This document shows, one piece after another, positions 4,440 to 40,969 of a stretch of DNA of 41,062 nt. The notes beneath the pieces are model-generated. The model saw only the letters and a list, made by a program, of their open reading frames with translations. It did not search any database and was not told the origin of the DNA. This stretch comes from a bacterium (GTDB taxonomy: Bacteria; JBDRGX01), in NCBI GenBank assembly GCA_043817485.1, contig JBDRGX010000078.1:1-41062 (forward strand), in the 5' to 3' direction. Positions within the stretch are counted from its first letter, which is position 1. Each line of letters starts with the position of its first letter. Position numbers and translations under genes: made by a program.

Positions 4440-4734
4440 TATATATAACGACTTAAGTTAATTGGCATAAAAACTTAACTTTATCCATAAATACATTTGT
4501 TTGCATAAATTTTAATCCCTGTATCCCTGTACCTTTTCTCTTACATTTCGATATATATACCTTCTACAACAATGTCACCCCTTCGGGGTTTAATTGGTAA
4601 TTATTTAATAATTGCTATAATAATATCAGCCCTTCAGGCTTTAATATATATAACGACTTAACTTTATCCATAAATACATCTACTTGCATATTTTTTTTGA
4701 ATTGTTCGTTAACTATTTTTTGCCGTTATATATA
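4440..4734. repeat. 295-bp intergenic repeat, copy 1 (MITE-like or structured-RNA-like element)
   Basis: Near-identical to 8507..8801, with about a dozen differences by eye. Terminal inverted repeat TATATATAACGAC / GCCGTTATATATA. Internal direct sub-repeat (TATATATAACGACTTA...ACTTTATCCATAAATACAT) and two short GC hairpins (CCCC-TTCG-GGGG and AGCC-CTTCA-GGCT). Confidence 0.85.
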
Positions 4735-4795: not shown

Positions 4796-7700
4796 TTAAA
4801 ATTGCTGTTCAATGCTTATTTTCTTTGCTTTCTTTTTAATAGTTTCTAATAAACGACTTACTAAATCCTTTTTTATTTTTATTTCTTCTTTTTCTATTTT
4901 ACAAAACAAATCTTGATATATTTTTAAAGCTTTTTTGTTTTGATCCATATTTTCCCAACAACTTGCAATATAAAGATAAGCATTTATACTTGTTAAAGTA
5001 TTTGGATATTTTTCAATTACTTTTTGATACGCTTTTATTGTTTGTTCAAAATAAATTCCAGCATCTTTTTCATAAGTTTTAGTTACAGTAAGTTTATACA
5101 ACTTATTTGCTTTTTCTATTTCTTTTAAAGCTAATGCTTCTATACAATCATTTATTGATTCTTTTGCTTTTTCTACTTCTTTTGTTTTATTATATTTACT
5201 AATTACTTTATTATATTCTTGAATAGCAAGTTCATATTCTTTGTTATTAAAAAATAAATTTCCTTTTTTTAATTGAATTCTTGGAGCATCAAGATGTGAA
5301 GGAAAATGTAATAAAATTTTATCATAAGTTTTTACTGCTTCTATTATATTATTTTGTTTTTCATAACATTCAGCAATAGTTTCTAAACTATTAAAAACAT
5401 ACTTACTTTGAGGAAATAAATTAATAAATTGTTCATAAGATTTTTTTGCTTCTTCAAATTTCATTTGATTCCAATAAGATTCTGATAAAAAAAATCTTGC
5501 ATTTTCTAAAATTTCTTTTTCTTTGCTATATTTTTCTATTATTGATTGAAAAACAGGAATAGATTTTTCATAATCTCCATAATTATAAAATGCTTGACCA
5601 ATACTAAAATAAGCACAAGCTTTTAATTTTTCTTTTACATCTGGATTATCTATCACTTTTTTAAAATACTGAACAGCTTCATTAATATTTCGTTTCTTTA
5701 AAAACACAGAACCAATTTTATAAGTTGATTGAGAAGCATAATTTTTAACTTTAGAAAGTGAATTATAAATTTCTAAAGCTTTAGATTCATATTCTACATC
5801 TTTATCTGTAATTAAATTTCTGTAACACTCTGCTAATCCATATTTTGCATCATTTATTAAATCACTTCGAGAAAAATTATTTATTACTTCCTGATATTTT
5901 TTAATAGATACATCATATTTTTCTTGTTTTCTTAAAACATTAGCCAAAGATAAAATAATACGAGCTTTTATATTATATTTTTGAGATAGTGTTAAAGATT
6001 CATTAAAACTTTTTTCAGATTGTTGTAAAAGATTTTTATCTTCTTCTAAATTTCCTTTTTGCATTAAAAGCACGGCTTTTGCTTCACCTTCTGCTTGCAA
6101 AATTAATTTATTTATTTTTTCAATATCATTTAATTTTTGTTTTTGATAACATAAAGATAAATTATAAACAGATGGAAAAATAATATCAGAATTAGGATAT
6201 TTATAAATAATTTTTTCAAAATATTTTTCTGCATCTTGAAAATCATTTTCTATAAAATAACATTGTCCTATTTGATAAAAAATTTTATCACCAATTTCAT
6301 TACTTGCTATTTCATTTTCTAAACATAATTCATATTCTTTTTTTGCATCTTTATAATTTTTTTGATTATAATACAAAAAACCTTTTTTATATCTTACTCT
6401 AACTTTTGTTTTATCTCCTAATTCCTTTCTTGTTAAAATCTCATCACATTTTTTTAAAGCATCTTCTATTTTACCAGTTTTTTCTAAAAGATTTATAATT
6501 TGAAGTTCTGCTTGTCCAACTAATTCTCCTTCAGTTATTTCTTGAAAACATTTAAAAGCTTTATCTAATTGATTTGCAACATCATAAACTAAACCTAAAT
6601 TAAATTTTGCTTTTACTTTAACTTCATCATCTAAATTTTGTTGAGATAATATTTGAGTATAAAGAGAAATTGCTTCTTCTAATTTTCCTAATTCTTTTAA
6701 TACTAATCCAATATAAATTTGAGCGTCATATACATATCTTGTATCTTTATAATTTTCAAGTATTTTATTAAATTCTATTTTTGCTTGATCATATTCTTCT
6801 TTAAAATAATATATTTCTCCTATGTCTAATTGAGCTAATGCTTTAATTTCATTTTCTACATCACTTTCAATAATTTTTTTATCTTCATTAATAGCTAAAT
6901 TAATATCAATTTCTCTATAAATTTCACTTAATTTTATTTTTGCAAATTTATAAAAATTACTTTCTTTAGATATTTTCTTTAAATTATCCAAAGCTTTTTT
7001 AATATTATTTCTATCTTGAGTAATTAATTCAAAATAAACTAAACCTAATTTATAATAAACATTATCTATAATATAAGATTTGGGATATTTTGAGACAACT
7101 TCTTCTAAACTTGTAATAGATTTTTGAAGTTCTCCTTGTGTATAATAAATTTTTGCTTCTAAATAAATTACTTCATCTAAAATAAAAGTTTCAGAATATT
7201 TTTTTCTTATTTCACTAAGAAAATTTTTAGCCATTTCCAAATCATTTTTTTCAAAATAACATTTGCTTAAACCAATTAGTACTTTATCTGTTAAATCAGG
7301 ATCTTTTTCATAATCAAATTTTCCAGATATTTTGATTTGTTGTCCCTTATATAACTCATTATATTTCTTAATTGCTAATTCAAAATTTTCTAAAGTATAA
7401 TAACTATCAGCTAAAATCAATTTTGCATCATCTGCATATCTATGATTAGAATAATCTGGATTAATTTCAAAATATTTATAATTTGCTACGATAGAATTAT
7501 AATCTTTTAAATTAAACATACATTGAAACATTCTATATCGTGCTTCTGGAGATAAATCTGGATCATTAGGATATACCTTTTCTAATGTAATAAAACCATC
7601 TAATGCTTCTTTAAATTGACCCATTTTATAATAAGACCAAGCAATTCCATAATAAGCTAACTTTTCAGCTCTTGTATTTGGAAATCTTTTAATTACAATT

Positions 7701-8428
7701 TGATATTGTTCAATAGCTTTTTTATGCTCATTTTGACGCATATAAGCTTCTCCAATCTGAAATTGAGCATTACTTTGAAGTTCACTATCATTAGAATGTT
7801 GTATTAAATCTTTATAAATAGCTTCTGCTTTATCATATTCTTTTAATTCTCTATAACAAGCAGCCATTTTTTCTTTTACTTTATGCTCTAAATTAGAATC
7901 ATATTTTTCTGCAATAATCCATTTATGCTTATAAGATAAAACTTCTTTATATAAAACTAATGCTTTTTTTATTTCTTCAATATTAATTATTTCTTGTTGT
8001 TCTTTTAATTTTGCTTTATAATTATCTATTTTTTTATTCAATTTATTTTTTAAATCAAAATCTATTTCTTTTCCATAAATTGGAACTAATTTCTTATAGA
8101 TTTCAAATATATTTTTCAAAGAAGTATAATATATTTTTTTATCTTTATTTTTTTCTTTTAAAATTTCATATTCTTTTATTTTTTTTATTAATTTTTTCTC
8201 CATTTTCTCTTCAACAATTACTTTATTTTTTTCTTTTCTATTTAATTCAAAATATTGTTTTATAAAAGACTGTAAATCTGTATATTGTTCTATTGATGCA
8301 TTGTATTCCGAATGTTCAAATAAACTAGCAGCTTTTTCAGTTTTATATTTCAAATCAAAATGATTAGGAATATTATAAGATAAAAAAGAACTTACAGCAC
8401 AAATAACTAACCATATTTTAATAAACAT
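4796..8428 (-). CDS. very large tetratricopeptide (TPR) repeat protein, probably exported or periplasmic
   Basis: 1210-aa ORF with a hydrophobic N-terminus. It contains dozens of TPR-like 34-aa units (A.Y.IG..Y....Y..A...F..ii..YP.s....A.Y). Confidence 0.85.
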   Translation of the reverse strand: MFIKIWLVICAVSSFLSYNIPNHFDLKYKTEKAASLFEHSEYNASIEQYTDLQSFIKQYFELNRKEKNKVIVEEKMEKKLIKKIKEYEILKEKNKDKKIYYTSLKNIFEIYKKLVPIYGKEIDFDLKNKLNKKIDNYKAKLKEQQEIINIEEIKKALVLYKEVLSYKHKWIIAEKYDSNLEHKVKEKMAACYRELKEYDKAEAIYKDLIQHSNDSELQSNAQFQIGEAYMRQNEHKKAIEQYQIVIKRFPNTRAEKLAYYGIAWSYYKMGQFKEALDGFITLEKVYPNDPDLSPEARYRMFQCMFNLKDYNSIVANYKYFEINPDYSNHRYADDAKLILADSYYTLENFELAIKKYNELYKGQQIKISGKFDYEKDPDLTDKVLIGLSKCYFEKNDLEMAKNFLSEIRKKYSETFILDEVIYLEAKIYYTQGELQKSITSLEEVVSKYPKSYIIDNVYYKLGLVYFELITQDRNNIKKALDNLKKISKESNFYKFAKIKLSEIYREIDINLAINEDKKIIESDVENEIKALAQLDIGEIYYFKEEYDQAKIEFNKILENYKDTRYVYDAQIYIGLVLKELGKLEEAISLYTQILSQQNLDDEVKVKAKFNLGLVYDVANQLDKAFKCFQEITEGELVGQAELQIINLLEKTGKIEDALKKCDEILTRKELGDKTKVRVRYKKGFLYYNQKNYKDAKKEYELCLENEIASNEIGDKIFYQIGQCYFIENDFQDAEKYFEKIIYKYPNSDIIFPSVYNLSLCYQKQKLNDIEKINKLILQAEGEAKAVLLMQKGNLEEDKNLLQQSEKSFNESLTLSQKYNIKARIILSLANVLRKQEKYDVSIKKYQEVINNFSRSDLINDAKYGLAECYRNLITDKDVEYESKALEIYNSLSKVKNYASQSTYKIGSVFLKKRNINEAVQYFKKVIDNPDVKEKLKACAYFSIGQAFYNYGDYEKSIPVFQSIIEKYSKEKEILENARFFLSESYWNQMKFEEAKKSYEQFINLFPQSKYVFNSLETIAECYEKQNNIIEAVKTYDKILLHFPSHLDAPRIQLKKGNLFFNNKEYELAIQEYNKVISKYNKTKEVEKAKESINDCIEALALKEIEKANKLYKLTVTKTYEKDAGIYFEQTIKAYQKVIEKYPNTLTSINAYLYIASCWENMDQNKKALKIYQDLFCKIEKEEIKIKKDLVSRLLETIKKKAKKISIEQQF

Positions 8429-8506: not shown

Positions 8507-8801
8507 TATATATAACGACTTAAGTTAATTGGCATAAAAACTTAATTTTATCCATAAATACATTTGTTTGCATAAATTTAATCCCTTATCCCATGTACCT
8601 TTTCTCTTACATTTAGTTATATATACCTTCTACAACATTGTCACCCCTTCGGGGTTTAATTGGTAATTATTTAATAATTGCTATAATAATATCAGCCCTT
8701 CAGGCTTTAATATATATAAAAACTTAACTTTATCCATAAATACATCTACTTGCATAATTTTTTTTGAATTGTTCGTTAACTATTTTTTGCCGTTATATAT
8801 A
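8507..8801. repeat. 295-bp intergenic repeat, copy 2
   Basis: Direct-orientation copy of 4440..4734, the same length and 4067 bp away. It lies immediately upstream (gene sense) of the TPR gene. Confidence 0.85.
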
Positions 8802-25499: not shown

Positions 25500-26210
25500 A
25501 TGAATGAACAAATAAAATTAATTATATCTTTGCAAAGCATTGATACTAATATAGCAAATTTTAACACAAAAAAAAATGAAATTGAAAAAATTATTGATGA
25601 ACAACTTCAAAAAACAAATAAAAGCAAAAATTATTATGATGAAACCAAAAAAAAATTTTTTGAATTAGAAAAAGAAAAACATCATAAAGAAGTAGAAGTA
25701 AAATCATTAGAAGAAGAAATAAAAAAAATTCTAAAGCAATTATCTGACATAAAAACTAATAAAGAATATTCTGCATTACAACAAGAAATAAACCATAGAA
25801 AAGAAAAAAAAGAAAATTTAGAAACAGAAATAATTTTATGTTTTGATAAAGAAGATTTTTTAAAAAAAGAAACAAATGATTCCAAAAAAAAATTAGAAGA
25901 AGAAATAAAAAAAATTGAAAAAAACAAAAATGAATTAGAAGAAAAAATAAAAGAAATTGAAAAAAATATTATAAAAGAACAAGAAAATAAAAAAAATTTT
26001 GCTTTAAAAGTAGAAAAAAATCTTTTTAATAGATATGAAACAATTATCAATAATCCTAACAAAAATAGCTTGGCTATAACTATTATCAAAGAAGGTTTTT
26101 GTCAAGGATGTTTTGTTTTTTTACCTCCACAAAAAATAAATGAAATAAAAACAAATAAAAATATTATTTCTTGTGAATCTTGTGGAAGATTTTTATATTA
26201 TGATGAATAA
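25500..26210 (+). CDS. COG1579-type coiled-coil protein with a C-terminal C4 zinc ribbon
   Basis: Long Lys/Glu coiled coil containing the conserved NKEYSALQQEI block, then CQGC...x...CESCGRFLY. AAGGAG RBS 9 nt upstream of the ATG. Confidence 0.8.
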   Translation: MNEQIKLIISLQSIDTNIANFNTKKNEIEKIIDEQLQKTNKSKNYYDETKKKFFELEKEKHHKEVEVKSLEEEIKKILKQLSDIKTNKEYSALQQEINHRKEKKENLETEIILCFDKEDFLKKETNDSKKKLEEEIKKIEKNKNELEEKIKEIEKNIIKEQENKKNFALKVEKNLFNRYETIINNPNKNSLAITIIKEGFCQGCFVFLPPQKINEIKTNKNIISCESCGRFLYYDE

Positions 26211-26218
26211 ATATATAT

Positions 26219-26712
26219 AAAGGTAAGTCAGATGGTCGCAAAAGCATTTATACCAAATTGCATTCAAAATGATAATAAAATGGATAGAAGAAAACAACGG
26301 AAAAGAATTAAAAATTCCACCCCCTACCCCCGCCAGCAGGGGACAAAAGAAATTAAAAATTAGTTAGATAAAAATCTGGCGATGAAATTAACACAATTAG
26401 CATTTGAATACGATTTGGTATTTAGCTTTTGAGGAAAGTCCGAGCTTCATAGGTCAAGATGCCTGTTGTTAAAACAGGTAAAGGTAACTTTAAGGAAAGT
26501 GTCACAGAAAATATACCGCCTTGTTTTTTAACAAGGTAAGGGTGAAAAGGCGAGGTAAAAGCTCACCGCTAATGTAGGTAACTATATTAGCAGACAAACC
26601 CCATCTGAAGCAAGATCAAATAAAAAACTATAAGGCTGACCCCCTTGTTTTTGGGTAGATCGCTTAGATAAATGACCATCAAATACAGAACTCGGCTTAT
26701 GACTTACCTTTT
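26219..26712 (+). ncRNA. rnpB: RNase P RNA, bacterial type A, with an abnormally long P3
   Basis: Universal P4 halves GAGGAAAGUCCGAGC and ACAGAACUCGGCUUA. GGUAAGGGUGAAAAGG and AGCAAGAUCAAAUA-type conserved blocks. P1 AAGGUAAGUCA pairs with UGACUUACCUU. P2 GAUGGUC pairs with GACCAUC. Confidence 0.9.
26249..26422. mobile_element. MITE-like element, family A (TIR ATACCAAGTCGTATTCAAATG), located inside rnpB helix P3
   Basis: The left arm TATACCAAATTGCATTCAAAATG and right arm CATTTGAATACGATTTGGTAT are inverted repeats. The same terminal sequence recurs at 32382..32463 (both ends) and at 29263..29284 (one end). Confidence 0.65.
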
Positions 26713-26742
26713 AATAATTATAAAAAAATAGGGCAAATAAAA

Positions 26743-29262: not shown

Positions 29263-29284
29263 TATCCCAAGTCGCATTAAAATG
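29263..29284. repeat. solo terminal repeat of MITE family A
   Basis: TATCCCAAGTCGCATTAAAATG(CTAAC) matches the family A end consensus. No convincing partner arm nearby. Confidence 0.4.
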
Positions 29285-29345
29285 CTAACTATTTTTTTTC
29301 CAAATAATTGTAAGAATCTTTCAAAAATACTATTACTTTATTTTA

Positions 29346-32381: not shown

Positions 32382-32463
32382 TATACCAAGTCGTATTCAA
32401 ATGTTAACTTTATTGGCTTTGTTATCGTCTCATTGCTTATCATTTTAAATGCAACTTAGTATA
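32382..32463. mobile_element. MITE-like element, family A, 82-bp copy between pstB2 and phoU
   Basis: TATACCAAGTCGTATTCAAATG ... CATTTTAAATGCAACTTAGTATA form ~22-bp inverted termini. They match the ends of the rnpB P3 insert. Confidence 0.6.
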
Positions 32464-40734: not shown

Positions 40735-40969
40735 TAATATGATGAGGTGCTGGTGAATTGCAAACATGAGAATGAAGATTTAATAAATTCCCCTTTATTA
40801 AAGGGGTGGCATTCCGAAGGAATGACGGGGAGAATAATTAAGTGGTAGCTTTTTCAAGTATTATGAGTTGGAGTAATATGATGAGGTGCTGGTGAATTGC
40901 AAATATGAGAATGGAGATTTAATAAATTCCCCTTTATTAAAGGGGTGGCATTCCGAAGGAATGACGGGG
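40735..40969 (+). repeat. tandem duplication (two 96-bp copies, 139-bp period) of the leader and 5' end of a DUF559 gene
   Basis: 40735..40830 and 40874..40969 differ at two positions. Each copy has two hairpins: CCCCTTT-ATT-AAAGGGG and CATTCC-GAA-GGAATG. Confidence 0.85.

Follow-up and report, generated by a model that had tools for sequence, protein, structure and literature searches.

How does a gene for an essential ribozyme come to carry a helix P3 of 193 nt, what is the extra sequence in it, and can the RNA still be expected to work? The window, by which we mean the whole analysed stretch of 41,062 nt, belongs to an AT-rich, Elusimicrobiota-like bacterium and has an overall GC content of 24.9%. 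According to Rfam it holds one bacterial type A RNase P RNA, which the covariance-model scan matched to RF00010 with 209.6 bits against a gathering score of 100 (E=1e-66). From the RF00010 match, the minimum free energy (MFE) fold and the alignment with relatives, the gene, rnpB, is complete at positions 26219..26712 of the plus strand, and it is 494 nt long with the insert and 322 nt without it.

The 5' end of the gene has to be read from the fold and not from the covariance model. The local Rfam alignment begins at 26414 and forces the P1 and P2 positions of the model onto mismatched bases, since an insert of this size is too large for a local covariance alignment to span, and a standard cmscan puts the 5' end about 195 nt too far downstream (26414, not 26219) for the same reason. 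The pairings given here are taken from an unconstrained MFE fold of 26218-26714. In that fold P1 is formed by 26219-26230 with 26700-26711 (12 standard pairs) and P2 by 26231-26238 with 26673-26680 (8 standard pairs), so that the 5' strands at 26219..26238 make 20 consecutive standard pairs, and the real 5' strands lie upstream of the Rfam start. Within them, GAUGGUCGC corresponds to GGUGGUCGC of the comparison rnpB genes. The basal stem of P3 follows, with the 5' strand CAAAAGC at 26239..26245 and the 3' strand GCUUUUG at 26425..26431 (7 standard pairs). P4 starts directly 3' of P3, at 26432; its 5' strand GAGGAAAGUCCG (26432..26443) matches the RF00010 consensus with high posterior probability, its 3' strand ACAGAACUCGGCUUA (26685-26699) matches it too, and both conserved P4 strands (GAGGAAAGUCCG and ACAGAAnnCGGCUUA) are thus found and agree with the consensus. 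The first-pass annotation, made from the sequence alone, had stated that the core type A elements are present, and the score together with the intact pairings of P1, P2, P3 and P4 bears this out. The RNA has no helix P18 (at 26658-26665 the model's 24 positions have 0 nt opposite them) and its P12 and P3 stems are short; with the insert discounted it is a compact type A RNA of 322 nt.

To judge what is normal for such a gene we used seven independent syntenic rnpB genes, which were reached through the gene upstream. This gene (25500..26210, plus strand) encodes a CT398-like coiled-coil and C4 zinc-ribbon protein (Pfam PF24481 and PF02591), and rnpB starts only 9 nt past its stop codon, so co-transcription of the two is possible. 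Homologues of the zinc-ribbon gene in Nitrospirota, Omnitrophota and other metagenome-assembled genomes (MAGs) have rnpB next to them in every locus with enough downstream flank, sometimes with an RNase H gene in between. The order of zinc-ribbon gene, optional RNase H gene and rnpB is kept across distant phyla (the window and loci L203, L204, L205, L208, L213, L214, L216, L219, L220 and L221). The glycosyltransferase gene downstream gave no such access, with 0 rnpB genes nearby among 80 genome loci and two Logan contigs. The closest homologue of a neighbouring gene was 57% identical, and no close relative was found in which the empty site could be compared.

In six of the seven comparison genes P3 is 19-25 nt long, against 193 nt in the window, and P4 lies 39-43 nt from the 5' end in these six and 130 nt in the remaining one, against 212 nt here. 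The segment between P2 and P4 is therefore abnormally long, as had first been noted, and a long P3 is not something that the relatives all share, although none of the seven is a close one. When the insert is deleted, the 322-nt RNA aligns over its full length with the rnpB genes of L203 and L205 at 62% identity, and these two are 63% identical to each other; the insert-deleted RNA was used because MAFFT misplaced the gap when given the uncut 5' region. The rest of the gene shows no sign of decay, with a divergence no greater than among the relatives, and a full-length alignment at normal divergence makes rnpB look functional.

The extra sequence sits between the two strands of P3, with the 5' strands of P1 and P2 upstream of it and P4 directly after, which places it inside the mature RNA. 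[quoted passage not shown] The left terminal inverted repeat ATACCAAATTGCATTCAAAATG (26250..26271, plus strand) is identical to the family consensus at 21 of 22 positions and the right one CATTTGAATACGATTTGGTAT (26401..26421, plus strand) at 19 of 22. The two arms, of 22 and 21 nt, pair with one U-G pair, one C-A mismatch and one bulge, and past a small internal loop they make a long helix above the base of P3. The CAAAAGC/GCUUUUG stem, the internal loop and the helix on top of them hence appear in the MFE fold just as they were first described. The 193-nt P3 segment folds at -41.9 kcal/mol (z = -4.93), and none of 200 shuffled sequences was as stable.

The centre of the element (26306..26361, plus strand) was read from the sequence as a GC-rich core with a flanking 11-nt direct repeat, AATTAAAAATT, whose copies lie at 26306-26316 and 26351-26361. 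The 34-nt core (26317-26350) has 67.6% GC against 24.9% in the window, so it was rightly called atypical. The 11-nt direct repeats suggest that this centre may have arisen by a nested insertion; no second copy of the core occurs within the window. The core has the look of a terminator, a hairpin followed by a T run, on the minus strand only, and transcription of rnpB on the sense strand should therefore not be stopped by it. The insert has no open reading frame longer than 43 aa, tblastn found no transposase similarity in the whole window, and there are no tandem repeats in 26200-26450. The copy in rnpB is strongly shifted towards AT: it agrees with the consensus at about 60% of its subterminal bases, and where it differs the change is mostly G-to-A or C-to-T. 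About 47 extra nucleotides are found in its centre, where other members of the family also hold insertions.

What makes this a mobile element and not just a long hairpin is its relatives. All nine 125-bp elements behind the profile belong to one sub-family and come from foreign metagenome contigs, and the profile covers the insert in rnpB from model position 1 to 125 on the plus strand (nhmmer, E=2.6e-8). Judged from this match, the insert is homologous over its whole length to a 125-bp MITE family of many unrelated bacteria. A degenerate pattern of the arms has exact matches in at least 120 public metagenome contigs, which range from 19% to 75% GC among the matches listed, and many of the matched contigs carry complete elements of about 122-185 bp with the same ends of about 22 nt. 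A MITE specific to one lineage was considered and is ruled out by the presence of the same termini in contigs of 19-75% GC. Neither Rfam, in the window and in 16 MITE-bearing loci, nor a blastn comparison of the 125-bp element with the PLSDB plasmids gave a family or a match, and the arm sequence did not turn up in the full-text literature.

The same arms are also found at the ends of five full-length elements of 1141-1153 bp (L116:394-1539, L117:3857-5009, L123:173-1325, L145:559-1699 and L189:937-2077; L206 and L207 belong to the same subgroup). These carry two overlapping frames, orfA with a helix-turn-helix and orfB with a DDE_3 transposase domain (Pfam DDE_3, HTH_33 and HTH_29). Against the IS630 model NF033545 of NCBIfam, orfB reaches 120.6 bits where the cut-off is 100; only this DDE part passes, but both frames match and together they span model positions 4-298. 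The arm pair is asymmetric, with TTGC...AAAATG on one side and TCGY...AAATG on the other, and it is so in the full-length elements as well. By their sequence, then, the arms of the insert are the terminal repeats of full-length IS630-type elements. The similarity to other copies is significant and reaches well beyond the window, as both the foreign profile and the IS630 termini testify.

As a side result, these elements define an IS630 subgroup that crosses phyla, its contigs ranging from 19% to 75% GC, with the terminal repeat TACCAAGTTGCATTCAAA, a transposase split into orfA and orfB and a TNA target duplication. The transposase frame stops inside the terminal repeat, where ...H/N-L-N-A-T-stop is encoded by CATTTGAATGCAACTTAG, and the repeat has probably been conserved across phyla because the stop codon lies within it. 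At least three unrelated MITE interiors share the IS630 termini. Type 1 (the 125-bp element of L105) has two purine-rich, Shine-Dalgarno-like direct repeats, GGAGGAGG, around a small hairpin, and its stem has U-G pairs on the given strand that would be C-A mismatches on the other; type 2 (L109, L112, L172, L173, L174, L176 and L182) has a hairpin of the GTCATTGCGAACGAATGTGAAGCAATC type, and type 3 (L101, L154, L178 and L194) is a high-GC form.

Within the window the family is present at two further places, in agreement with the first suggestion that the arms are the termini of a repeat family with more copies; two complete copies and one solo end thus lie dispersed within 41 kb. The second copy is an internally deleted element of 80 nt at 32383..32462 on the minus strand, supported by two minus-strand nhmmer matches (model positions 77-125 with E=1.8e-6, positions 1-28 with E=0.0058), by matches to the arms and by a hairpin with z = -3.7. 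The arms are found there at 32383-32403 and 32441-32462 (1-3 mismatches), and chance alone would give 0.00 such occurrences; the copy sits between pstB and phoU, sense to that operon, and its orientation is opposite to that of the copy in rnpB. The solo right end, at 29265..29291 on the minus strand, matches model positions 98-124 (E=0.037) and also the core pattern; it lies between an aminotransferase gene and radA and has a single arm at 29267-29282. The core arm pattern has five matches in the window against 0.47 expected. All three copies share the direction of local transcription, which is plus for rnpB and minus for pstB-phoU and for radA/aminotransferase; with n=3 this is not significant.

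Other repeats are also found in the window. Two direct repeats of about 260 bp, at 4440-4698 and 8507-8764, are 94-99% identical and flank the gene of a 1210-aa TPR protein (4796-8428, minus strand); both contain a sub-repeat and small GC hairpins. Near the contig end, two 96-nt units at 40735-40830 and 40874-40969, 98% identical and 139 nt apart, each hold GC-rich hairpins (CCCCTTTATTAAAGGGG and GGCATTCCGAAGGAATGAC) without a match in Rfam. They lie just upstream of an open reading frame that is cut by the contig end (LPYNPNLKQKAKELRKAGNLSEVLLWNE...), which we take to resemble the N-terminus of proteins with a DUF559/Vsr-like endonuclease domain.

The target sites point to how the element came to lie in P3. 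The target duplication of IS630 elements is usually given as TA. At 22 of the 30 informative foreign sites (P = 1.2e-6), however, TACC...GGTA is preceded and followed by T-N-A, and N is the same base in both; this subgroup thus duplicates a 3-bp TNA and not the TA of IS630. A canonical TA duplication with a repeat starting at CC was tried and rejected, as the variable base is identical and not complementary on the two sides. Full-length relatives on a Polaromonas plasmid (TGA) and an Acaryochloris plasmid (TAA) obey the TNA rule. The copy in rnpB is flanked by TTA on the left and TTTA on the right, and the second copy (32383-32462) by TTA and TAA. By the family rule, the left duplication in rnpB would be the TTA at 26248..26250, and the right one, at 26421..26424, is imperfect with TTTA for the expected TTA. 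Allowing for one extra T, we infer an empty site of CAAAAGC-AUUUA-GCUUUUG, a 7-bp stem with an AUUUA loop; such a P3 would be 19 nt long, the same size as that of the relatives, and the element would have hit UUA within the original AUUUA loop.

Taken together, the most convincing explanation, and one that we hold with considerable confidence, is that a non-autonomous MITE derived from IS630 transposed into the UUA of the apical loop of P3 in a type A rnpB. The first-pass annotation had already proposed that a mobile hairpin element landed in this loop, and the match to the foreign profile, the IS630 termini and the position between the P3 strands all uphold it. The element would be included in the RNase P RNA transcript, where its arms would lengthen P3 by a helix of about 22 bp, a coaxial extension that the mature RNA would retain. 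The distal end of P3 lies at the periphery of type A RNase P RNA and faces away from the catalytic core and the substrate-binding surface, and the ribozyme should therefore still work. The insertion looks old, fixed and neutral, since the element is AT-shifted, the target duplications are imperfect, no transposase was found in the window and the host gene is intact. Most likely the element is a tolerated passenger that has gained no function; nothing supports the earlier idea that it has been put to use.

The fate of the RNA is less certain than the origin of the insert. A near-perfect helix of about 22 bp is a plausible substrate for RNase III, so retention of the element in the mature RNA is not assured. 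It is conceivable, although we think it considerably less probable than retention, that RNase III cuts the MITE helix and removes the insert, leaving a two-piece RNase P RNA in which a 5' fragment of about 30 nt (the 5' strands of P1, P2 and P3) is base-paired to a 3' fragment of about 290 nt. RNase III is known to cut hairpin-shaped intervening sequences out of rRNA, after which the ends are not religated, and in vitro bacterial RNase P RNA can be put together again from fragments. The arms offer some 22 near-continuous base pairs, about two helical turns, atop P3, and P1, P2 and basal P3 have 27 pairs that could hold the fragments together; on the other hand, the helix has a mismatch and a bulge, and the related 125-bp elements are mostly intergenic and thereby uninformative about processing. 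If it were true, a transposon would have created a fragmented essential ribozyme, to be compared with fragmented rRNA and two-piece tmRNA. A weaker variant of this reading would have the extended P3 serve a lineage-specific protein as its binding platform.

That rnpB was inactivated by the insertion, with the RNase P activity coming from another rnpB or from the protein-only enzyme HARP elsewhere in the genome, strikes us as improbable. An insertion of 172 nt could in principle disturb the folding of a structured RNA, 41 kb of the genome are in view, and both types of RNase P enzyme are known to occur together in some bacteria (PMC9945441). Yet the gene scores 209.6 bits even with P1-P3 misaligned, the pairings of P1 to P4 are all intact, and its identity to two relatives (62%) equals theirs to each other (63%). 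The conserved position downstream of the zinc-ribbon gene is also kept, and the element has aged in place, as seen from its AT shift, while the host gene is undecayed.

One of the comparison genes does have a long P3 of its own. The rnpB of L208 (2313-2787; Nitrospirota MAG GCA_040756135.1, contig JBFLZS010000070.1) has an insert of about 90 nt in the P3 loop, made up of two small GC hairpins and one heptamer-repeat hairpin, where GAAGTGA x5 (2350-2384) is paired with AACTTTT x3.9 (2396-2422); the fold has z = -6.9. Its sister MAGs L203 and L214 have a short P3 of about 20 nt. This insert is of another kind than that of the window; with it the P3 loop seems to be generally tolerant of insertions, and the L208 case makes the insertion in the window less singular. 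It also lends something to the thought that the long P3 is an expansion native to the lineage, whose likeness to the repeats is coincidental or convergent, since peripheral helices of RNase P RNA vary in length and the long P3 of L208 consists of heptamer repeats without transposon termini. For the window we regard this as very improbable, because the foreign-only profile matches the insert from end to end, the asymmetric arm pair is the same as in full-length IS630 elements, and two more copies lie at unrelated intergenic sites in the window. A chimeric join during assembly, induced by the repeat, would fit a metagenome-type contig with a dispersed repeat, but it is scarcely credible: the element is flanked by two halves of a single P3 stem that are complementary to each other, collinearity of the gene holds to its left and to its right, and the three copies in the window are too diverged from one another for a collapsed or chimeric join.

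The insertion of the MITE into rnpB gives a natural and sequence-defined DNA transposon remnant within the gene of a catalytic RNA, and an uncommon case of apparent tolerance: the apical loop of P3 apparently accepts more than 170 nt, which is over half of the length of the core RNA. Taken with L208, it points to mobile and repetitive DNA as one way in which the peripheral helices of RNase P RNA become longer. Given that the covariance-model annotation lost the 5' end of the gene, such insertions are likely to be under-reported in metagenomes, and gene boundaries to be mis-called, wherever a large insert sits in a peripheral helix.

In the literature we found no report of a MITE, or of an insertion of this sort, inside rnpB, and several known systems come near to it. 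In 1997 Vioque reportedly described STRR heptamers in helix P12 of the RNase P RNA of heterocyst-forming cyanobacteria. As in the window, a genome-wide repetitive element there lengthens a peripheral helix of an otherwise normal and functional type A rnpB, but the STRRs are tandem heptamers, they lie in P12 of the specificity domain and they have no termini related to a transposase, whereas the element in the window is an inverted repeat derived from a transposon, lies in P3 of the catalytic domain and has no tandem repeats. The insert of L208, though in P3, is nearer to the STRRs than that of the window. Correia elements, the MITEs of Neisseria, are co-transcribed and cut by RNase III, and from untranslated regions of mRNA they modulate mRNA stability; here too a MITE hairpin in a transcript gives a long double-stranded RNA, but the element in the window is inside a ribozyme. 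The extra DNA of the intervening sequences in 23S and 16S rRNA likewise forms hairpins and likewise sits in the apical loop of a peripheral helix, there of a structural RNA that is essential, and the host tolerates it. Those sequences are excised by RNase III and the rRNA is left fragmented, and a transposon origin can usually not be demonstrated for them, while it can for the insert in rnpB.

A MITE of similar description is Nezha, an IS630-derived element of Anabaena and Nostoc that is linked to ISNpu3-like elements and was reported to have been transferred to Polaromonas (PMC3184786). Elements of the Nezha type share with ours a size of 125-170 bp, termini in common with an autonomous insertion sequence, short direct repeats, a stable hairpin and AT-rich targets, and the best plasmid-borne relative of our parent transposase is in Polaromonas, with others in cyanobacteria; the likeness to Nezha is one of description only, and the IS630-derived MITEs reported so far are intergenic or fused to open reading frames. 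In eukaryotic and archaeal RNase P/MRP RNA, P3 is again the enlarged helix, and the expanded P3 binds Pop6/Pop7 or RPP20/RPP25 (PMC4919922). Theirs, however, are conserved helix-loop-helix modules for protein binding, whereas the extension in our rnpB is what is left of a transposon; it is decaying, and neither conservation nor a partner protein is indicated. The insertion in rnpB is thus a variant of known phenomena and no new kind of system.
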